From a virus: a stretch of DNA of 64,000 nucleotides. The first letter of the stretch is position 1; the number at the start of each line of letters is the position of its first letter. The DNA is taken from positions 15,719-79,718 of IMG/VR virus record IMGVR_UViG_3300044846_003365; one strand, written 5' to 3'. Shown piece by piece: positions 4,107-60,462 of this stretch. The notes beneath the pieces were generated by a model. It was not told where the DNA came from and did not search any database. It saw only the letters and a list, made by a program, of their open reading frames with translations. A program made the position numbers and the translations under genes.

Positions 4107-7100
4107 CTAAGTAAGAAGTCTCAGTAGCTTTGACATCTCGGAGGAAATCTCTCCCTGACTGTATAAGTCAGAGCCAGACTTGAACCCTCTAAGTGCCTCC
4201 GTAGCTACATCGGCGTCTTCCTTACCTATCTTGGCCTCTACCTTGGTAATCATGTCATCCATGAGGTCCCTTAGGGCAGGGGGTAAATCTGAGTAGCGAA
4301 TCTTCCTAGCTTGGTTGTTAAACCCAAGGGGGAGGTTAGCTATAACTTTTCCTAGCTCAGCAGCTGAGCTACGAACATTTTCCAGTGAAACCTTATTTAA
4401 GGCACCACTATCTAGTCTGTCTACTATACCTATTAGTTTATCTGCAGCTTCAGCAGATTTGTAGTAGTCACCTAGTTCGTGCAAGTTTTCTATGCTTTTG
4501 ACTTCTTCAACAATTTTCTGTAAACCAGCCGTGCCAAGGTTATTTTTAAGTCTGGCAAGAACTTTACGGAACTTGCCGTGCTCGTCGCGGGGCTGAGTTT
4601 TGGCGGTATAGATGCCAGTATCTTTCCTGCCGTCAGTGCCAACCCGCTCTTCTTCAGTAGGAGTTTCGCCGTTAACGATAGGTTCGCCCGTGTTAGGGTC
4701 AATTTCCTCTTCGTTAGCTAGCGACTCAACCTTGGTAGATTCAGCGCCAGCTTTCTTAGCTGGCGCTACTACTTTTTTTGGGTCAACGACCTCCTCAGGA
4801 GCAGCGTACCCGCCACTCGCAGAGACCGCATCAATTTTTGCTCGCATCGCATCTAGAGAAGCTGTAATGCTGTCTGAAGAAGCTGACTTCCAGTCCTGCG
4901 GAACCAAGTCGTACTTCTTTAGAGCACGTGCACGCTTGATAATATGCTTGCGCACTAGTGCACGCTTTTCTTTAGTAGTTCTTCCGTAAGACTGAATAGC
5001 ATTCTTCAAATCAGAAGCATTTCTAATTGGGAATGAGCCGTCTGGCAACGCCTGACCCTTCTTTGCCAAACGCTGACGCATCTGAGAAGAGATAAAAGCA
5101 AAGTCATCGTAGTCTGTAGAGAACTCCGCTTTAGCTTCTGCAAATTTTGCCTTAATTGCCTGTAGCTCATCTGACTTCTCGGCTAGAAGGTTAGCTGTCT
5201 CTAACTTATTTAGCCTGTCAGTAAGTTCTGTTACTGGGTCACTCTTCATCTTGGCTAGAGTCTGAGCACCAGCTGCAACTAGAGCCATAACAGCACCAGA
5301 AGCAACACGAGCACGAGCGATTGGGAAGCCTGGAACGTTTACCTGACATACAGCAACTAGCTCAAGTGAGCCACGGATTGGTCTCCAGTCTCCAGAAGGA
5401 GCTGAAGCACGTGCTGCACGTACCTGCTCAGGGCTAATGCTTGGACGTAGCGCACCAGCTACCCAAATTCCGTAAGAATCTTCTCCAGCGTGTACATCTG
5501 CAAAAGCTGAAGCAGTGTCGTCGTAGTGCTTGACAGCCTCAGAAGCAGAGGCTTCAAGAGAAGCGTGTCCTCCAGCTAGGGTTAAGTTTCCAACTGCAAC
5601 GTCTTCGCCAGTCTCAGTTCTGACTGCGCCAGTGTGAAAGTATGCGTAGTTAGAACGGCTACGTGGTGGCTTTACGCCTCTTGACATTCCAATGTGGTCA
5701 ACATTCCAAGCTGCAATGTGACCGAATACTCTACCGTCGTCGGTGATTGTTAGTGGGGTTGCCTTGTCTAGCTTAGGGTCCTCGAACCACTCTTTAGGTG
5801 GGTTAAGAGGTACGGAGCTAGCAATAATGCCACAAGCGACTAGGCTATCGGCATAGTTTGGGTCCACATCCTCAGCGTATACGCCGTCGGAAATCATGGG
5901 TTCCTCCTGATTAATCATAGTATCTTCCTCAAGATAAATCTTGCATTCTTGAAAAGCTGGCTTAGGTACTATTGTAATACCCATTACCCTAGCCTTATTT
6001 ATAACAATTTTGTCTTTACCTAAAGATTTGGAGTCTTCGTCAGTATCTGAAGCCTCGTTCTTGTGTTCGGTGGCCTCAAACTGGTCCATGTCGGCTGAAA
6101 TGCCTTTAATGAAATTGTTTTTAATTAGGCGCACAACTTCTTTGGCATTGGCTCCGCTATCAAAGTATCCGTAGGCATTGCCAATTCCATCTTCAGTTCT
6201 TTCCATGTGGTCGATTCGACCAACTACAACTGAGCCATCATGTCCAGAACTAGTCTTGACCTGCCACATTAGAGGTAGAGGAAGCTCTCTGAAGGAGATA
6301 GCTCCCTTCTTAAATTTTCTACCGTCTCCAGACTCGACTTCTTCTGGAATAACCAAAGGAATACTAAACTTTGGACCTAGCTCGCTTTCTGAGCTAGCAA
6401 CTAGCGATTCTTTGGTTATTGAAGACAGTATTTTATTGAATTTATTTCTAGCTTCGTTCTTCATAGCAATTTGACCAAACGAATCTAGTACCGCAGTTTC
6501 TGAACTAACAATCCCGTTGCTAAAAGTGGCGAATCCGCCCTTACGACGACCAAAAATTTGCCTGTGCTTAGCGTCTCCAGTCCAAAGACCAGTAACTTCC
6601 TTGTGCCTTAAGGCGCAATAACCTTTAGCCCTTGGACCTAAGTACTTTGACAGATTTCTAACGCATCTGGTCCAGTCTCCTGGAGTGCCCCATCTAATCT
6701 TTAGGGCACCCTCCCCACGAGTCCAGTAGCGACGAAGTTCCTCTGCGTTTCCACGGTTTCTGTCTGCGCCACCTGCCGCCAAAAGTGATTCTGAATCTGC
6801 CAAAAATTGGCTTTCTGCACGCTTAATTGACTCTGCATTTGGGCCCCATAGAACCATCAAAGCTTGGTCGTAGCTAGCTGAAGCTTGAACTCCGTCTACC
6901 TGTAGTAGAACGCTGTTCAATTCTTCACCCTGTAGGGCAACTACTGGCGGTGGGGTAGGAGACTTAAGGTCAGCCAATACTCCATCGTCTTTTACCCACT
7001 TCTTTTCGTTGCGAGCGTAAGCAACTGGTTCGTTACTCTTATTAGTCGCTGGGACAATACTTACAAGCTTAAGAACTGCACTAGGGTCATCTTGAGGAAC

Positions 7101-44440: not shown

Positions 44441-44584
44441 TTTTTGTTTCCTTTCTGTTGCTTTTATTATACAACCCCCCACTGACAAAAGTAATCCCTT
44501 TTTGGGTTATGTTATCAATTTGTTATAAATGCGAAAGGGTGCCAGTTTTTTCACGCAGGCTCAGCGTGGAGAATGTTTGACCCT

Positions 44585-51722: not shown

Positions 51723-52040
51723 ATGTCAACAGCATTTAACGTATTTCTCCGTATTATAGCAACCTTCGTAGCGTCAGCCCTAGGCGTCATTGGAGCTGGT
51801 GCAGTTATGGGCGTAGAGCTATGGCTAGCTATGGCTATGGGAGGAATCCTAGCTGTAGCCAAGGTAGTAGAGCGTTTAGCCGTTGCCTTCCTAGAAGACG
51901 GCAGGCTCACTAGGGCAGAGATAAACGCAGCCTTCGCCCCAGCCATGACCCTTAAGGGTGTCGATGCTGAAGGCAACTCCACCAAACCACTTAAGAAAAC
52001 AACAACTAAGAGAAAGTCAGCAACAACAAAGAATGTTTAA
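51723..52040 (+). CDS. Holin-like membrane protein
   Basis: Two transmembrane segments, DGRLTRAEINAAF, basic tail. Confidence 0.6.
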   Translation: MSTAFNVFLRIIATFVASALGVIGAGAVMGVELWLAMAMGGILAVAKVVERLAVAFLEDGRLTRAEINAAFAPAMTLKGVDAEGNSTKPLKKTTTKRKSATTKNV

Positions 52041-53988
52041 AAGCAAGCTCAAACTAAACAAGATACTTCTAGCATCCCTGCTCGCATTTGCCCCCTCAAT
52101 ACTAGGAGCAGACTTAGCTCGCGCTAACTCCTGTGTCTACCCCGGACAGGAAGCTGCAGTAGCTGCTGCCCAGCAAAACGCCTCAACTGAACCAGTAGTT
52201 GTAGAAATTAATACCTGTGGTGGAGATGATATCTCTTATCAGATTCCTCTATCCGTTGATGTAACTTTTGATGGAGTAACTTACAACAGCGTTTACGCTA
52301 CTACTAACTCAGTAATTACTTTTGGTGCCCCAGACGGAACTTACTGGACTTACCCATCTACTCCATCCATTTCCCTTTACTCCTTCGACTGGGTTGTCTA
52401 TCCACAGTGGAGAAGTGACGAGCACCTTATTATTCGTTCGTCAGATGGTGGATTTCAAGTAGACATTTCTGCCAGACCTATTTGGCTACAAAACGCAACA
52501 GAGCCAACACGCATTGTTATTACTGCAGCCATCCTTTCAGATGGCACAGTTGCTATGGCTTACACCCTAAGTGGCCCAGAGTATCCAGACAATAACCCTA
52601 GAACTGGAGTACGTCTAAATGACGGAAGCATTGTTGATTTCGAGACTTACGGAATTGATGAGACAGAAGAAGTACCAGTAATCACTCCAGAGCCACAGCC
52701 AGAGAACCCCTTTGAACCTGAGCCAACCCCTGAGCCTACGCCAGAGCCTACCCCCACACCAGAGCCAGAGCCTACTCCTGAACCCACACCTGAGCCAGAG
52801 CCCACACCAGAACCTACCCCAGAACCGACTCCTACCCCCACTCCACCAACTATTCCAGATGGCGCAACAGTAACAAATGAAGGCTCATTTGTTGAGATAG
52901 TTGCCCCTGAAGGTCAGAGAATTGCGAGCGCTACTGGATACTATGGAGACCCTAACGATGGAACTCGTGGAGAAGACGTATCTTCTATTTTGTTTGGCTT
53001 ACTAGCTGGACAGACTTCAGCAACAGTAGAAGTATCAAATACAACTTTTCAGGGTGACCCAGCAGGTGGCACACCTAAGGTGCTAATTCTTCTTCTTACT
53101 TATGAAGACATTCCAGTAGAACCAAACCCAGAACCAACCCCAACACCTGAGCCGACTCCAGAACCTACACCTGAGCCGACACCAGAGCCACCACTACCTA
53201 CTCCAAACCCAGAGCCTACTCCGACTCCAACTCCCGAACCAACAGTGCCCCCAACACCGACACCAACAGAACCACCAACACCTGAACCAACACAGGAGCC
53301 AGAGCCACAGCCGACACCAGAGCCAGAAGTGGAACCAACGCCAGAAGAACCAACAACCCCACCAACTGAGCCAACTGAAGAACCATTACCAGAACCTACT
53401 CCTAATCCAGAAGAAACAGTAGAACTTCCAGAAGAGATAACTCCTGAAGTTCTAATGGAACTTAATCTAGATGAAATTATAGCAACAGACCTTACTCCAG
53501 CGCAAGCTGAAGCTCTTGTTGAAGCAGCTCTAGAAACCTTTGAGACAGCCGAGCAGGGCTCACCAGAGTATGAGCAAGCTCTAGATGCCCTTTATCTAGC
53601 GTCCCAGCAGGACGACATCGTACTAGATGAAGAGCTAGCAGCTATCCCACTTCTAGGTGACGCTTTGGTAGGAGCCATTGATTTGGTAAACGCCTTAGGT
53701 AACGCAGGTTCTGACATGAGCCCACAAGTACGTGAGACCTCAGAAGAAGTTGTAGTAGCAGCCGTCATTGTTGGACAAGTTGCAACCGTTGCCACAATGG
53801 CAGCTGGTTCAGCTCCAGTAGGAGGCTCAGCACCAACAGGTGGCTCAGGAGGCGGAGGAGCTCCAGTAGGCAACGAATCCAAATCTAAGCCAAAGACTCG
53901 CAAACAAGTAAAGACAAAAGCAAAAGCAAAAACAAAAACAAAAACAACAATCAAAAAACCACGTATCAAATTCAGAAGGAGCAAATAA
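52033..53988 (+). CDS. Exported/surface protein with NIDO-like and SUEL-lectin-like domains and Pro-Thr-Glu repeats
   Basis: Signal peptide, PEPT repeats, C-terminal hydrophobic stretch and Lys-rich tail. Confidence 0.7.
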   Translation: MFKSKLKLNKILLASLLAFAPSILGADLARANSCVYPGQEAAVAAAQQNASTEPVVVEINTCGGDDISYQIPLSVDVTFDGVTYNSVYATTNSVITFGAPDGTYWTYPSTPSISLYSFDWVVYPQWRSDEHLIIRSSDGGFQVDISARPIWLQNATEPTRIVITAAILSDGTVAMAYTLSGPEYPDNNPRTGVRLNDGSIVDFETYGIDETEEVPVITPEPQPENPFEPEPTPEPTPEPTPTPEPEPTPEPTPEPEPTPEPTPEPTPTPTPPTIPDGATVTNEGSFVEIVAPEGQRIASATGYYGDPNDGTRGEDVSSILFGLLAGQTSATVEVSNTTFQGDPAGGTPKVLILLLTYEDIPVEPNPEPTPTPEPTPEPTPEPTPEPPLPTPNPEPTPTPTPEPTVPPTPTPTEPPTPEPTQEPEPQPTPEPEVEPTPEEPTTPPTEPTEEPLPEPTPNPEETVELPEEITPEVLMELNLDEIIATDLTPAQAEALVEAALETFETAEQGSPEYEQALDALYLASQQDDIVLDEELAAIPLLGDALVGAIDLVNALGNAGSDMSPQVRETSEEVVVAAVIVGQVATVATMAAGSAPVGGSAPTGGSGGGGAPVGNESKSKPKTRKQVKTKAKAKTKTKTTIKKPRIKFRRSK

Positions 53989-54174
53989 ATGATTCACTTC
54001 CTAATCGCACTAGCTAAGGATTTAATCGACCAAGCATGGACTCTACTAGGAATGGCTATCGCATGGCTAGTACTAGAGGGTTCTGCACGTGACCTAACAG
54101 GAATGCTAATTATTCTCACACTACTTGTTTGGATAGTTACTTTCCCTATGCGTTACGAAAAAGAAGAAGAGTAA
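53989..54174 (+). CDS. Small membrane protein
   Basis: DQAWTLLGMAIAWLVLEGSAR. Confidence 0.65.
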   Translation: MIHFLIALAKDLIDQAWTLLGMAIAWLVLEGSARDLTGMLIILTLLVWIVTFPMRYEKEEE

Positions 54175-54176
54175 AC

Positions 54177-54587
54177 ATGTACGAGTACAGAGTTAAGCAA
54201 GTCCTAAAAGTAGTTGATGGAGACACTATTGATGTTGACATTGACTTAGGCTTTAACATTTCCTACACTCAGCGAGTTCGTCTTGCTGGTATTGATACTC
54301 CAGAGTCTCGCACTACAGACAAGGCTGAAAAGGCTCTTGGACTGGAAGTTAAGAAGCACTTAGGGGAATTACTAAAGTCTTCCAAGGAAATAGTTATTCG
54401 TACTGAAAAGCCAGATTCCACTGAGAAGTATGGCCGAATTCTTGGTTGGATTTTCCTAGATGGTTCACACGAGTCCGTTAATACAGCACTAATTGCAGAC
54501 GGGTACGCGTGGGACTACATGGGAGAAACCAAAGTAAAAGACTTTGAGCTACTTCGTCAGCGCAGAGAGGCCAAGTCAAAATCCTAG
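54177..54587 (+). CDS. Staphylococcal-nuclease-like (thermonuclease) protein
   Basis: VVDGDTID..RVRLAGIDTPE..KYGRILG. Confidence 0.9.
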   Translation: MYEYRVKQVLKVVDGDTIDVDIDLGFNISYTQRVRLAGIDTPESRTTDKAEKALGLEVKKHLGELLKSSKEIVIRTEKPDSTEKYGRILGWIFLDGSHESVNTALIADGYAWDYMGETKVKDFELLRQRREAKSKS

Positions 54588-54640
54588 CTTTAAGTTAATA
54601 TAGTTAAGTAAAGGCCAAACCACTAGTAAGGAAGATACAA

Positions 54641-55870
54641 ATGGCAAAAGCACAATTCCCGATTGATGGGAAACAAGGAAAAGCTTGGAAGATAACAAGT
54701 CCATATGGATGGCGCGTGCATCCCATAGAGAAAATCAAAAAGCATCATAATGGCGATGATATCTGGGGACCTGCAGCAAAGATTTATTGCGAAGCTTGGC
54801 ATGATGGAACAGTTGTTTACGCTGGAACCTCAAAGCTAAAAAACGCTGATGGCTCGCTTGGTGGCGTAGGTTACTACGTAGACCTAAGAAGCAAAGTTAA
54901 TGGTAAGTGGTATGTAGCACGCTATGGTCACATGGTTGAAGGTAGCCTAAAGGTCACTACTGGCCAGAAGGTAGAAGCAGGAACCATTCTTGGAATCATG
55001 GGAAACACTGGAGCTAGCGCAGGACGCCACCTACACTTTGAGATTGTCGAAGGCAAGAAGCACGTTTGGGACCTAAAGGGTAAGGGCTTTGTTAGCCCTA
55101 TCGCTTTTGTTAAGTCTGTAATTGAGCAGGAAAAGCTAGTTGCTCAAGGCAAGGTTGAAACTCCAGAAACAGCTCCTGTTACTGAGACTCCAGTCAATCA
55201 CGAAGAGGTTGGAGCCAAGCTTATGGAAGAAGAGAAAGCAAAACCAGCTCCAGTAGCTAAACCAGCCGTTACTGCAAAAGCTCCTGTAAAGAAAGCAGGC
55301 GCTATAGAGCCACACCCAATCATTGCAAAGCATGGTCTAACTCTTGGAACCGTTGACGCAGTAATGGCATTGGCTAAGCACTTTGTTGACAAGAAGTATG
55401 TTGAAGGACCAAAGAAAGACACCATCTTTGGAAAGTTCATGGGACTTAACTACGCACCTTGGTGTGCGTCTTTTGTTTCCTATGTCTTTCAAAAGTCAGG
55501 TGCAGGATACATTGTTAGAAACGCACAGACCCCTAAAGGTTTTGTAGGTTGTACAGCAGGCATCAATGGTCTAAAAAAGAAAGGCTTCAAGACTGTAAAA
55601 GTTACTGAAGCTTTACCAGGCGACATCATCTTCTTTGACTGGGAGCGCAACAATGACCCAGACCACGTAGGACTTGTTCTTAAGACCAACCCTAAGAAGA
55701 AAACAATTACTTGCTATGAAGGAAACACCACCAACGGAATGGGCGGTTCTCAGTCAAACGGTGGCGGTTGCTTCAAGCGTGACCGTCGCTACGACCAAGT
55801 ATTTGTTGTAATTCGCCCTGAGTTTAAAGCTCCAAAGGTTGCACCAGTTGATGCAACTCCTACTAACTAA
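54641..55870 (+). CDS. Endolysin, M23 peptidase plus CHAP
   Basis: HNGDD..HLHFE (M23); PWCASFVS..PGDIIFF..HVGLV..EGN (CHAP). Confidence 0.9.
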   Translation: MAKAQFPIDGKQGKAWKITSPYGWRVHPIEKIKKHHNGDDIWGPAAKIYCEAWHDGTVVYAGTSKLKNADGSLGGVGYYVDLRSKVNGKWYVARYGHMVEGSLKVTTGQKVEAGTILGIMGNTGASAGRHLHFEIVEGKKHVWDLKGKGFVSPIAFVKSVIEQEKLVAQGKVETPETAPVTETPVNHEEVGAKLMEEEKAKPAPVAKPAVTAKAPVKKAGAIEPHPIIAKHGLTLGTVDAVMALAKHFVDKKYVEGPKKDTIFGKFMGLNYAPWCASFVSYVFQKSGAGYIVRNAQTPKGFVGCTAGINGLKKKGFKTVKVTEALPGDIIFFDWERNNDPDHVGLVLKTNPKKKTITCYEGNTTNGMGGSQSNGGGCFKRDRRYDQVFVVIRPEFKAPKVAPVDATPTN

Positions 55871-55896
55871 TGCTAGACTTCAGAAGGAGGTAAATA

Positions 55897-56136
55897 ATGG
55901 CAAAACTGAAAGACATTTGGACTTGGCTTAAAGGCGAAGGACCTACTCTAGTTATCAATGCTAGAGATGCAGACGGAGATGGAGTTATCCAAGAAGGAAC
56001 TCCATTTGAGCGACCAGCTAAAAAGAAGGCTCCTGCAAAGAAGCCAGTAGCTAAGAAAGCTACAGCAACCACTAAGAAGCCAGTAGCTAAGAAACCTGCT
56101 ACGGCTCCTAAGAAGGTCGCTCCAAAAAAGAAGTAA
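55897..56136 (+). CDS. Small basic protein with PAKK histone-like repeats
   Basis: DADGDGVIQEGTPFER followed by Lys/Ala/Pro repeats. Confidence 0.7.
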   Translation: MAKLKDIWTWLKGEGPTLVINARDADGDGVIQEGTPFERPAKKKAPAKKPVAKKATATTKKPVAKKPATAPKKVAPKKK

Positions 56137-56153
56137 AACACTTTCTTAAAAAG

Positions 56154-56240
56154 AAAACCCCCCAGAGCAACAACTGGGGGGTTTCCCTTTATCACAGAAA
56201 GGAATCAAACATGAACAGACAATCGTAAACATCTGGCCAC
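56154..56240 (-). ncRNA. Candidate small RNA B (anti-SD/anti-AUG)
   Basis: TGcTAGAAT -10; start at GUGGC; bidirectional terminator; paralog of C. Confidence 0.55.
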
Positions 56241-56361
56241 CTTTCCATTCTAGCACATTAATGTACAAAAGCAATAAATACTGGACTTTATTTTCGACTT
56301 GTATAATTGTTATTAGGGAATACCCTAAATTTTATTCGAACAGCATTAAGGAGACATTACT

Positions 56362-57036
56362 ATGTCAACATGGATTAGACCAGTAGATGGCGGCTCAATT
56401 TCTGACAGCTTCCAAGGACACGCAAATAGAACAAACCCACCCTCAAGAAACCCTGGAACAGATTACGCAGTACCAGCTGGAACACCTATCAAAGCAATCG
56501 CAGACGGAACCATTACTGGAATCGTCCCTACTTTTGCAGGGGCTGGTGGAAGAATGATTTACCAAAGCTTCGCATCAGGCCACAACGCCGATTACCTTCA
56601 TCTTTCACGTATTGACGTAGTTGCTGGTCAGCAAGTCAAGCAGGGTCAGATTATTGGACTAGTTGGTGGCTCAGGTTTCGGCAAAGAAAACGGCTATGGC
56701 GCACACCTTCACCTCTCATTCCGCGTAGGTGGTAAGCCAACAATGGCTGCTGGAAACCTTGACTACGAAGCTTTCCGTGGAGCACCTACAAGTGCTACAC
56801 CTGCAAAGCCAAGTGTTGCACCAGCTAAAGCTGGAACAAGAGCATACCCCGGAAGGTTCCTGAAACAAGGAGAGCCTGCCAGTGCAGATGTACTTTACTT
56901 ACAAAACAAGCTAGGAGTTAACCCTCCAGGTCCATTCGGCCCTAAGACTCACGCAGCTGTTGTTGCCTTTCAAGCTTCGAAAGGTCTTACCGCAGATGGA
57001 GTTGTTGGCCCTAAGACTTGGGCAGCACTGGGTTAA
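56362..57036 (+). CDS. M23 peptidase plus peptidoglycan-binding domain
   Basis: PGTDY..YLHL..HLHLS; FGPKTHAAVVAFQ..DGVVGPKTW. Confidence 0.85.
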   Translation: MSTWIRPVDGGSISDSFQGHANRTNPPSRNPGTDYAVPAGTPIKAIADGTITGIVPTFAGAGGRMIYQSFASGHNADYLHLSRIDVVAGQQVKQGQIIGLVGGSGFGKENGYGAHLHLSFRVGGKPTMAAGNLDYEAFRGAPTSATPAKPSVAPAKAGTRAYPGRFLKQGEPASADVLYLQNKLGVNPPGPFGPKTHAAVVAFQASKGLTADGVVGPKTWAALG

Positions 57037-57163
57037 TTAGAAGTATGTGTACTAACATTTATTTAAAAAATCAAGGGGGCTTGTCGAATACGACACTATT
57101 GTTTCCAAAGCAGGAAACAATTTATGAAAACAAGGAGAAATAAATGTTAAAAAGGAGAAACGT

Positions 57164-57928
57164 ATGACGTGGTATCCAAAAGTATCAGGAGTACAAGACA
57201 ACGGATTTGGTGGCTCTCGTAATGGTCAGCCAATCAATGGAGTAGTAATACACCACGTTGCAGGTACTAATGGATTATCTTATGTAGCTAACGCTAACAC
57301 TAGAGATTCACACCCTACGTACCACATCGCCAGAAGTGGGGCTGTGACTGGAATTGTTAATCCCAGTCGTAGACCCCACTCAACTGGTGGAGCCCCAGAC
57401 CCAAACGCTGTGTCGTTTGAAATAGATAACTCATCTGTTGGTGGAGATTGGCCTATCTCACCTGAATCACTCGAAGCTTTGATTGACGTGATTGTTTATC
57501 ACGCAAGTCAGTCGCCTAGAGCTGGTAAGGGATTTGCTAGAAATCAACCATCCGTTACACAGTCAGAGTTCTTTATTGCTTGGCACTCACAATACAAATC
57601 AACTGCTTGTCCTGGACCATTCATCATGTCCAAGCTTGATTACATAGTTGCTGAGTGTAACAAAAGAGCGTCTGGTGTTGCACCTTCCACACCAACCCCA
57701 ATTCCAACTCCAACTCAAGTATTTGGAACATCAAAGCCAAAACTATCTGGTTCTTTAAAAAGAGGCTCAACTGGAAACTTAGTTAAGTATCTTCAGTCAG
57801 TACTTAAGTTAAAAACTGATGGTCAGTTTGGTCCAATTACTGATAAAGCAGTTAGAGCTTTTCAAGCAAGAAACGGCTTAAAAGTTGATGGAATAGTCGG
57901 CCCAATAACTTGGGGAAGACTTCCGTAA
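57164..57928 (+). CDS. N-acetylmuramoyl-L-alanine amidase plus peptidoglycan-binding domain
   Basis: VVIHH..SFEI..WH..STACPG; DGIVGPITW. Confidence 0.85.
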   Translation: MTWYPKVSGVQDNGFGGSRNGQPINGVVIHHVAGTNGLSYVANANTRDSHPTYHIARSGAVTGIVNPSRRPHSTGGAPDPNAVSFEIDNSSVGGDWPISPESLEALIDVIVYHASQSPRAGKGFARNQPSVTQSEFFIAWHSQYKSTACPGPFIMSKLDYIVAECNKRASGVAPSTPTPIPTPTQVFGTSKPKLSGSLKRGSTGNLVKYLQSVLKLKTDGQFGPITDKAVRAFQARNGLKVDGIVGPITWGRLP

Positions 57929-57954
57929 CAAATAATCTTCCTATAAGGAATAGA

Positions 57955-58041
57955 GAAACCCCCCAGAAAGCAATAACTGGGGGGTTCTCTTTTTACTAGA
58001 GAAAGGAGTAATCCATGAACAGACAGTAACATATCCGCCAC
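57955..58041 (-). ncRNA. Candidate small RNA C (anti-SD/anti-AUG)
   Basis: TATGAT -10; start at GUGGC; terminator; paralog of B. Confidence 0.55.
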
Positions 58042-58058
58042 GCAATAATCATACACCC

Positions 58059-58562
58059 TTAATAGCCATAAACGCTACGAGCTATCCTTCTTTTTATTGT
58101 TGACAACTTAACCCCCTCCAACTCCGCCATAACGTGGGCTGGCTTGGCTACATAGCCAATTTGGTCTACCAAGAACAAATAATCTAAGGTGGACTGCTTA
58201 CCTACAGTAGGGAGGGTAGAAATGCCCCTATGAGCCTTAATGTGGGCTAACCCAACTTCTACCATGCTGTCTTTGTCTGGGCCTTTAGAGAGCCTTGAGG
58301 TTCCACCAACGTTCTTTAGAACGAATCCAAGCACCTCGTCAACCATAAACTCAGCTCTCCTTGAGACCTCAGCCTCACTATCGCCATGTATTGGAAGAGT
58401 CATACTACCTACTAAGGTAATAGTTGGTCGAAAGTTAGTACTTACTAACCATTCTGCACACCAACCGTCATCGCTTTTCTTAAGCTCAGCGGTCACTACG
58501 TGATTGTCCCTGACAAAAGTTAATACTTTTGTGCTTACGGATTTGTCTTTTCTAGTCTTCAT
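58059..58562 (-). CDS. Hypothetical protein with C-terminal HTH-like segment
   Basis: PAHVMAELEGVKLSTIKRRI. Confidence 0.55.
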   Translation of the reverse strand: MKTRKDKSVSTKVLTFVRDNHVVTAELKKSDDGWCAEWLVSTNFRPTITLVGSMTLPIHGDSEAEVSRRAEFMVDEVLGFVLKNVGGTSRLSKGPDKDSMVEVGLAHIKAHRGISTLPTVGKQSTLDYLFLVDQIGYVAKPAHVMAELEGVKLSTIKRRIARSVYGY

Positions 58563-59475: not shown

Positions 59476-59792
59476 AAGTAATCTTCAAGTTCCTTAAGCA
59501 TCCCAGCTTTTGGCTTGGCACCTGTCCATTGGTGCACAGGCTCTCCATCTAAAAAGATTTTCATAGTTGGAATAGAGCTGACCTTATAGAACTCAGCTAG
59601 GGGAGATTCGGTGTCTACGTTGACTTTGACAATCTTAAGCTGACCTTCGTACTCTTCGGACATTTGGTCCAAGATTGGAGAAACCATCTTGCATGGTCCA
59701 CACCACTCGGCCCAAAAGTCAACTAGAACTACTCCACTTTGCTGTAGCACGTCTTCTTCAAAAGTTTCTACAGTTGCATTAACGATGTTCAT
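59472..59792 (-). CDS. trxA: Thioredoxin
   Basis: VLVDFWAEWCGPCK..SIPT. Confidence 0.95.
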   Translation of the reverse strand: MNIVNATVETFEEDVLQQSGVVLVDFWAEWCGPCKMVSPILDQMSEEYEGQLKIVKVNVDTESPLAEFYKVSSIPTMKIFLDGEPVHQWTGAKPKAGMLKELEDYL

Positions 59793-59906
59793 CGAACTTA
59801 TCCTTATTCATTTTTTTACGCTCATCTACGGCAATTATCAATCCAATAATAATTCCAGAGCCAATTACAAGTGCCATTGTTATAAAAAGTGTTTCAGCTA
59901 TTTGGT

Positions 59907-60462
59907 TCATTTCATAAACCTTTCTTCATCAACTTTACGTTTAGTTTGATTCCGTATGTCAATTATAACATCATCTATAAACCACTCAATGTAGCCATTC
60001 TTATACATGACTTTGTAGAACTTTTCCCACGTAAAGATGATACTAAGAATGCGCCTTCTTTCACGCATTACACCTCTTTTGTAGTACTTCTTCTTTAAGT
60101 ACTTAGCTTCCCTCCAAAACCTAGCACTCACTACTGACATTGCCAACAACACTGAAACCGTTGCAACAGCCAGTCCCATCACTTGATAAGAAAGCATTGC
60201 CTCATCAGGACTCATTTGCACTCTCCTCAATTAACTTAATTGTTCGAGAAGCGTCATACAAATTCTCGCTAGCATGATTTTTAATTACGTTTACGATTCG
60301 CTCTCGCTCACGCAGTGCACCTTCGTGCAAAACAATTTGCAATGCTAAAGATTGCTCTTCTGTCAAACCATCAACTCTAATTTCAGCGTAAGCTTTCTTT
60401 TCACCGTCTGCGGGGAAGTACTCAGTTTCTACCATTTCAGTGCCTTTCTTTGTATCCACCAT
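59907..60462 (-). other. Two small hypothetical ORFs (59907-60230, 60205-60462) with ERxRI motif
   Basis: Co-oriented overlapping ORFs. Confidence 0.55.

Follow-up and report, generated by a model that had tools for sequence, protein, structure and literature searches.

The 64,000-nt stretch of DNA analysed here (the window, bases 15719-79718 of the 79.7-kb IMG/VR virus record IMGVR_UViG_3300044846_003365, with a CheckV completeness of 47%) comes from an uncultured freshwater actinobacterial phage and carries two homologous intergenic cassettes, A and B. Each appears to be a conserved minus-strand gene for a small RNA (sRNA) of 83-91 nt, located at the end of a plus-strand lysis island and duplicated by module shuffling. 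From the sequence comparisons presented below we give this interpretation a probability of about one half. It is the best reading because six copies, found in this phage and its relatives, keep a set of minus-strand features, and no peptide is conserved on the plus strand.

Six copies with common minus-strand signals

The preliminary description of this DNA had presented two cassettes, at 56154-56252 and 57955-58053, as homologous. A (56150-56257) and B (57951-58058) are indeed at these places, aligning over ~105 nt with the same order of blocks. Their local alignment score of 75 identifies them as true homologues, as shuffled sequences reach a mean of 16 (sd 2.4, maximum 29, n=2000 shuffles) and the best unrelated 200-nt tile of the window scores ~35. 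The pair also constitutes repeat family D20 of the window and has in common, at nearly equal spacing, the blocks CTGGGGGGTT, AGAAAGGA, CATGAACAGACA, GCCAC and ATnnTA, the last being the complement of the -10 box. The terminator stems CCCCCCAG/CUGGGGGG that had been described are found in both cassettes, together with the minus-strand hexamers TAGAAT (56247-56252) and TATGAT (58048-58053), each 6 nt before G-UGGC. As their identity is only ~76%, A and B probably derive from different lineages and not from a recent duplication.

Four further distinct copies were identified in IMG/VR phage contigs through amidase-anchored loci and pattern scans, and these four always sit at the 3' end of the plus-strand lysis island. 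Contig L006, whose amidase is 97% identical to that of the window, has a B-type copy with a separate plus-strand terminator ahead of it; L007 and L009 (to which L010 is identical), with amidases 83% identical, have a diverged copy after the amidase; and in the 6.2-kb contig L248 the copy follows a nuclease and a small membrane protein, with no lysin between. The cassette is thus preceded by an amidase, a 79-aa protein or a 67-aa membrane protein, and followed by a 167-aa gene, a 98/99-aa gene or nothing, and since the flanking genes differ on both sides it can be regarded as an independent unit. The earlier proposal that the RNAs are convergent with lysin genes holds in part: B meets the amidase gene, but A faces the 79-aa Lys-rich gene 3' of the M23/CHAP lysin, and the L248 cassette follows a small membrane protein instead. 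Read by eye, the six-copy alignment, in which ~65% of columns agree on average, falls into three sequence groups (A; B and L006; L009, L007 and L248).

Exact-pattern scans of IMG/VR either returned unrelated MNRQ gene starts and known copies (two scans) or added only L248 (another), and four protein-anchored searches (amidase in viral contigs and in metagenome contigs, M23/CHAP lysin, 79-aa protein) yielded no additional cassettes. A covariance model of the six copies, a check that had been suggested at the outset, recovered only its own training sequences from 856 kb of related loci; a match in L224 (23.7 bits) was discarded as merely a terminator. Near and distant nucleotide searches of the cultured-phage collection gave no match to the cassettes, and a look-up of RNA runs listed none for this sequence. 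In Rfam, searched at permissive E-values, all matches stayed below threshold, the best being BjrC1505 with 26.5 bits against a gathering score of 50 (E = 0.06). An intron in the relatives' amidase, considered in view of over-long matches, was rejected: the L006 amidase is one uninterrupted frame of the expected size, and the match just extends upstream of the gene.

On the minus strand, every copy has a -10 hexamer (TAGAAT, TATGAT, TAAAAT or TATAAT, the last in three copies) with T1, A2 and T6 fixed and the middle positions variable, followed in 6/6 by a purine exactly 7 nt downstream. The hexamer is preceded by TGTGC, giving a canonical extended -10, in A and L006, and at the sequence level a promoter-like element is found just upstream of a short stretch lacking an open reading frame (ORF), as in an independent sRNA gene. 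Minus-strand ORFs of 42 and 34 aa were rejected as candidates for a small protein, since they cross the terminator and indels between copies break the frame. The octamer CUGUUCAU (CTGTTCAT in minus-strand orientation) is invariant in all six copies despite the modest average agreement of the alignment, and all have a pyrimidine-rich, mostly unpaired tract. Each copy ends, in the orientation of the predicted RNA, with a terminator stem of 7-8 G-C-rich pairs, which has undergone two compensatory changes between clades (CCCCCCAG/CUGGGGGG versus GCCCCCGG/CCGGGGGC) and lies between an A-tract and a T-tract, as in bidirectional intrinsic terminators; the copy A hairpin has the tails UUUUCUUUUU (minus strand) and UUUCCCUUUA (plus strand). 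The U-tract is better on the minus strand, where the first four bases past the stem are UUUU or UUUC in 6/6, than on the plus strand, where they are UUUC, UUCU, CCUC, CUUU, CUUU and CUUU, with C first in 4/6.

For folding, the 5' end of each RNA was set by the '-10 plus 7' rule alone. The hairpin of the minimum free energy (MFE) structure begins at nt 1, the predicted +1, in all six folded RNAs. The predicted RNA of copy A consists of this 5' hairpin, a single-stranded UCCUUUCU stretch and the terminator. Across the six RNAs the CU-rich octamer has an unpaired probability of 0.68-0.92 (0.85 in A, 0.69 in B), while for CUGUUCAU in A, B and L006 the prediction is ~80% pairing inside the 5' hairpin (unpaired probability 0.18-0.20; 0.18 in A, 0.20 in B). 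The fold of the 5' region is more stable in the minus-strand RNA, at -9.7 to -3.2 kcal/mol against -3.4 to -1.2 for the plus strand, because several of its pairs are G-U.

If the cassettes are sRNA genes, each small minus-strand unit would be driven by an actinobacterial-type -10 promoter (TAnnAT, extended by TGTGC in A), and its RNA would comprise a hairpin at the extreme 5' end, the conserved CUGUUCAU, an unpaired pyrimidine-rich segment and an intrinsic terminator, the latter used back-to-back by the minus-strand RNA and the plus-strand lysis island. Within a small clade of freshwater actinophages, the unit marks the convergent junction that closes the lysis island. The RNA might act by base pairing, using CUGUUCAU, the CU-rich stretch or both. 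Its partner could be a purine-rich site such as a ribosome-binding region, either on an mRNA of the host or in the half of the phage genome that is missing; another possibility is pairing in cis, with read-through RNA of the plus strand or with the lysis mRNA at its complementary 3' end. A bolder version, in which the unpaired CUCCUUUCU-like tract would copy the 3' tail of actinobacterial 16S rRNA and, with CUGUUCAU, occupy host or phage ribosome-binding sites or neutralise translated lysis read-through, so timing lysis or host shut-off, the cassette also serving as a recombination joint for swaps of lysin modules, seems to us highly doubtful.

Possible targets and competing explanations

The preliminary description had proposed a more specific mechanism, in which the RNAs are trans-acting silencers whose UCCUUUCU-N7-CAU core blocks the Shine-Dalgarno (SD) sequence together with the AUG, either in early phage genes or in a host mRNA starting MNRQ. 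A, B and L006 do contain the composite complement, and AGAAAGGA-type SDs do occur on minus-strand genes, yet we consider this mechanism improbable. The anti-SD seed UCCUUUCU is confined to those three copies, the other three having UCCUUUAG, UCUCUUUU and GUUUCUUC, so that no anti-ribosome-binding seed is both conserved and accessible: the CU-rich tract is accessible but variable, and the anti-AUG element CUGUUCAU is invariant but mostly paired, in both window copies as well as in L006. Nor is AGAAAGGA the dominant early-gene SD that it had been taken for. It is one common variant, present at ~6 of 128 starts of a crude gene call, with GAAAGGA-type sequences at ~15, and in the 79.7-kb record its plus-strand occurrences are limited to the two cassettes, against 7 on the minus strand (6 of them at gene starts). 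The 11-nt matches to ribosome-binding sites exist, at 44448 and 32906 on the minus strand; they carry no weight, because an exact match of that length is found somewhere in the window for ~70% of shuffled cassettes.

Searches for a target start gave no convincing partner. In four related contigs (G000-G003, 36-75% complete), AGGA-N5-9-ATGAACAG was found only in the cassettes and at G002:20613, where it opens an ORF of only 13 codons and can hardly be a real gene start. When called starts were ranked with RNAduplex, the start of an orthologous protein of 1124 aa (G000) or 936 aa (G002) came first for B (-38.1) and L007 (-35.3). It was rejected as a target, since shuffled RNAs keeping the CU core reach equal scores in 15/60 (B) and 8/60 (L007) cases, and it ranks only 70th for A and 37th for L009. 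Likewise discarded were the 11-nt match CCATGAACAGA in the DNA polymerase gene, which is internal to the gene and not conserved in orthologues, and a 106-aa gene starting with ATGAACAG in an operon of G002 and G003, which has no homologue in this genome. The start of a 43-aa membrane-protein gene at 59910, in B's own operon, reads AGAAAGG-N8-ATGAAC and is 3 mismatches from the 21-nt site; it speaks in favour of silencing, but was not retained as a target. This gene (59779-59910, minus strand) encodes a single-pass membrane peptide, overlaps the upstream 107-aa gene by ATGA and stands just before a thioredoxin gene. For the host, a scan of 185,579 species genomes with GAAAGGA-N5-8-ATGAACAGACA gave, among the matches listed, mostly gene starts of Firmicutes and no actinobacterial cluster. 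Overall, the composite-site and duplex searches and the listed matches of the host-genome scan revealed no target, and no start conserved together with the sRNA could be identified in the phage contigs at their 36-75% completeness.

The variable seed and the lack of a target count against an sRNA gene, and several further observations weigh in the same direction. A sigma-70 two-hexamer scan flagged none of the cassette promoters, a terminator scan listed none of the cassette hairpins, and the 5' hairpins alone are not significant (z -1.7 to +0.2). Five of the six copies lie within the 3' untranslated region (UTR) of a minus-strand gene, where a terminator with its U-tract is needed anyway and a TAnnnT motif comes cheap. 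Between the window and L006, moreover, the cassette (~88%) is no better conserved than the amidase gene (~96%), and since the six copies form only three sequence groups, few of the comparisons are independent.

The failure to find a target and the weak 5' hairpin z-scores also fit an alternative that we consider unlikely, namely that the cassette is a junction module without a regulatory RNA: a conserved bidirectional terminator joined to the 3' UTR of the minus-strand operon, a 'linker' kept at a mosaic boundary and duplicated by lysin-module shuffling, in which the -10-like box, CUGUUCAU and the CU-rich tract would be functionless or a mere recombination substrate. Five of the six copies stand exactly at a convergent junction. 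Copy B directly follows the 167-aa gene (58059-58562, minus strand), the last of its operon, whose stop codon (58059-58061) lies 5 nt before the B -10-like box, so that B is also the 3' UTR of that gene. Direct repeats flank the two-lysin module, and copy A closes a module absent from the closest relative: L006 runs from the nuclease gene directly to the M23+PG_binding lysin, without the M23+CHAP gene, the 79-aa gene or copy A. In L248 the cassette closes an island stretch devoid of lysins, and the L009 contig has its M23+CHAP gene elsewhere, with a different terminator. Given these arrangements, the cassette behaves, as judged from gene order, as an 'end piece' of the island, and its second copy probably arose through module shuffling, the window having joined two modules that each ended in a cassette. 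The stepwise drop in identity between the window and L006, from ~96% in the amidase through ~88% in the cassette to ~78% in the 167-aa gene, suggests a mosaic boundary. A junction module does not, however, readily explain why the octamer and the -10 positions T1, A2 and T6 are invariant while the sequence between them varies freely, why copy A keeps every signal, including the promoter and the best minus-strand U-tract, without a minus-strand gene upstream, or why a hairpin begins at the predicted +1 in every copy.

A functional element on the plus strand, the alternative that had been raised beside the silencers, is likewise improbable. It would consist of a leaky terminator followed by a strong SD and AUG AAC AG, acting on lysis read-through as a mini-ORF or a ribosome-loading site, and would resemble the lambda bar minigenes or a stabiliser of the STAB-SD type. 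The SD, the ~7-nt spacer and ATGAACAG do lie in an A/C-rich, unstructured context typical of efficient starts, ATGAACAG is invariant in all six copies, and the weak plus-strand U-tract, with C right after the stem in 4/6, makes read-through plausible. However, the ORFs that start at ATGAACAG (MNRQS*, MNRQ*, MNRQSHIRHSIILAH*, MNSTL*, MNSTHKYNFIIHTKV* and one of ~44 codons in L248) have lengths of 4, 5, 5, 15, 15 and ~44 codons, so that neither the peptide nor the property of being a very short ORF is conserved; a 1-nt indel separates those of B and L006, and the SD is eroded, reading AAAGAGA in L007 and GAAGAAA in L248. Moreover, the plus-strand sequence downstream of B-type copies lies antisense to other genes, and the invariant TAnnAT and the better minus-strand U-tract are left unexplained. 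Since the six copies keep TAnnAT, the +7 purine, the +1 hairpin, the CU-rich stretch and a minus-biased U-tract while ORF length varies, the original preference for minus-strand RNA genes over plus-strand minigenes is supported.

The lysis island and its neighbourhood

Among the proteins encoded in the phage record are a portal, a major head protein and a terminase. Its portal shares 70% identity with the one of Actinomycetia phage DSL-LC01, a lake phage assembled from a metagenome (PMC10611076), and 63% with the one of Microbacterium phage Pumpernickel, and from these resemblances the host is almost certainly an actinobacterium. Nearly all genes are on the minus strand, the exception being the plus-strand island 51958-57928 (Table 1), with copy A inside it, 3' of the 79-aa gene, and copy B at its end, where it meets the minus-strand operon.

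Table 1. Predicted elements of cassettes A and B, genes of the lysis island and a scattered repeat motif (window coordinates; an asterisk in a peptide denotes a stop codon).
Feature	Position	Strand	Description
Copy A, predicted RNA	56150..56240	-	91 nt, starting at G 56240, 7 nt past the -10 box, and ending with the U-tract; MFE -34.2 kcal/mol
Copy A, promoter-like element	56247..56257	-	extended -10, TGTGC-TAGAAT (TRTGn + TAnnAT)
Copy A, hairpin CCCCCCAG-N8-CTGGGGGG	56158..56181	both	bidirectional intrinsic terminator, common with 79-aa gene
Copy A, plus-strand view	56196..56228	+	AGAAAGGA (56196-56203), 7-nt spacer, ATG AAC AGA CAA TCG TAA (56211-56228, MNRQS*)
Copy B, predicted RNA	57951..58041	-	91 nt, starting at G 58041 (GUGGC...); MFE -33.3 kcal/mol
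Copy B, -10 box TATGAT	58048..58053	-	
Copy B, hairpin CCCCCCAG-N10-CTGGGGGG	57959..57984	both	bidirectional terminator between amidase gene (+) and 167-aa gene (-)
Copy B, plus-strand view	58000..58029	+	AGAAAGGA(G) (58000-58007), spacer, ATG AAC AGA CAG TAA (58015-58029, MNRQ*)
Lysis island gene 1		+	Pro/Thr-rich 676-aa protein
Lysis island gene 2		+	61-aa membrane protein
Lysis island gene 3		+	staphylococcal-nuclease homologue
Lysis island gene 4	54641-55870	+	M23+CHAP lysin; part of copy A module 54641..56136
Lysis island gene 5	55897-56136	+	79-aa Lys-rich protein; part of copy A module 54641..56136
Lysis island gene 6	56362-57036	+	M23+PG_binding_1 lysin; module between copies, 56362..57928
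Lysis island gene 7	57164-57928	+	Amidase_2+PG_binding_1 lysin; module between copies, 56362..57928
GCGTGGAAAAA-N7-ACCCTTC motif	25166, 29669, 31228, 35628, 44564	+	
GCGTGGAAAAA-N7-ACCCTTC motif	23169, 36612, 38096	reverse orientation	

The 79-aa protein combines an EF-hand-like DADGDGVIQEG segment with a Lys/Ala/Pro-rich, histone-H1-like tail and has no match in Pfam or PHROG; its segment 'ARD.D.DG.IQEGTPFERP' reappears in three distant viral contigs. The 167-aa protein, which has no family match, has a helix-turn-helix-looking C-terminus; the L006 protein is 77% identical to it, and in the L007, L009 and L248 phages an unrelated 98/99-aa gene takes its place. Directly upstream of the ribosome-binding site of the M23/PG_binding lysin, plus-strand positions 56296-56361 carry a -10 box of the TGTATAAT type and, after it, a small hairpin (TTAGGGAATACCCTAA) with a T-run, an arrangement kept in the closest relative (L006:3440-3496), which may be a leader or attenuator of this lysin gene. 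In L011, a relative without the cassette, the amidase stop is followed at 5015-5150 (plus strand) by a TAGTATAAT box, then a long but imperfect hairpin (~95 nt) and a T-run, which would be a different candidate small RNA at the equivalent junction. Elsewhere in the window, the 23-nt motif GCGTGGAAAAA-N7-ACCCTTC (repeat families D7 and D18) is scattered across the minus-strand gene blocks.

Relation to known RNAs and significance

To our knowledge, hardly any exploration of regulatory RNAs has been made in actinobacteriophages, and none in uncultured freshwater phages. Among phage antisense RNAs, P22 sar and lambda OOP are ~70-80 nt long, have their own promoter and an intrinsic terminator, and lie opposite to neighbouring genes, sar being complementary to an SD and start codon and OOP overlapping the 3' end of a convergent gene. 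The cassettes are alike in that each is predicted to yield a small RNA with its own promoter and intrinsic terminator, opposite neighbouring phage genes. They differ in having neither sequence similarity to these RNAs nor an Rfam match, and in being known from sequence alone; in addition, sar faces a real gene, ant, whereas the cassettes have no ribosome-binding site of a functional, conserved gene on the opposite strand, only a non-conserved ORF of 4-44 codons.

A second resemblance is to 6C and RsaE/RoxS, sRNAs with C/U-rich loops from actinobacteria and Gram-positives lacking Hfq, and to the prophage RNA DicF, which all combine stem-loops, an unpaired pyrimidine segment able to pair with purine-rich ribosome-binding sites, and an intrinsic terminator. 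The predicted cassette RNAs have the same three components, but no similarity to these RNAs by sequence or covariance model, and they differ further in their variable pyrimidine tract and in the lack of an identified target. As for the lambda bar minigenes, phage intergenic elements in which an SD and a start codon precede a stop by very few codons, the cassettes have a comparable SD, start and early stop in such a region; the defining property fails here because shortness is not conserved: a conserved, SD-preceded ORF of 2-6 codons would be expected, but the ORF has at least 15 codons in three of the six copies (15, 15 and ~44), and the SD is weak in L007 and L248.

Close precedents among actinobacteriophages come from mycobacteriophages L5, D29 and StarStuff, in which abundant ORF-less intergenic RNAs, small and non-coding and without a known function, were detected with RNA-seq and Northern blots at the right end of the genome or within the 63-64 gap, in a region of ~500 bp (PMC5712189). 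Like these, the cassettes would give ORF-less intergenic transcripts encoded by an actinobacteriophage, in this case predicted; they are shorter, lie at the end of the lysis island and are deduced computationally, with no known sequence relation to the mycobacteriophage RNAs. With such actinophage precedents (PMC5712189), it is plausible that the cassettes represent a new candidate family of phage sRNAs.

Should the cassette be only a terminator or 3'-UTR joint, it would be an ordinary feature of mosaic phage genomes. If it is transcribed, on the other hand, it would define a small sRNA family with clear limits, its signals conserved across five phage contigs and its place set by a fixed landmark, the end of the lysis island. 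Such a family would allow concrete tests of whether RNA controls the timing of lysis or the takeover of the host, and of the way in which conserved non-coding joints promote the movement of lysin modules between phages.

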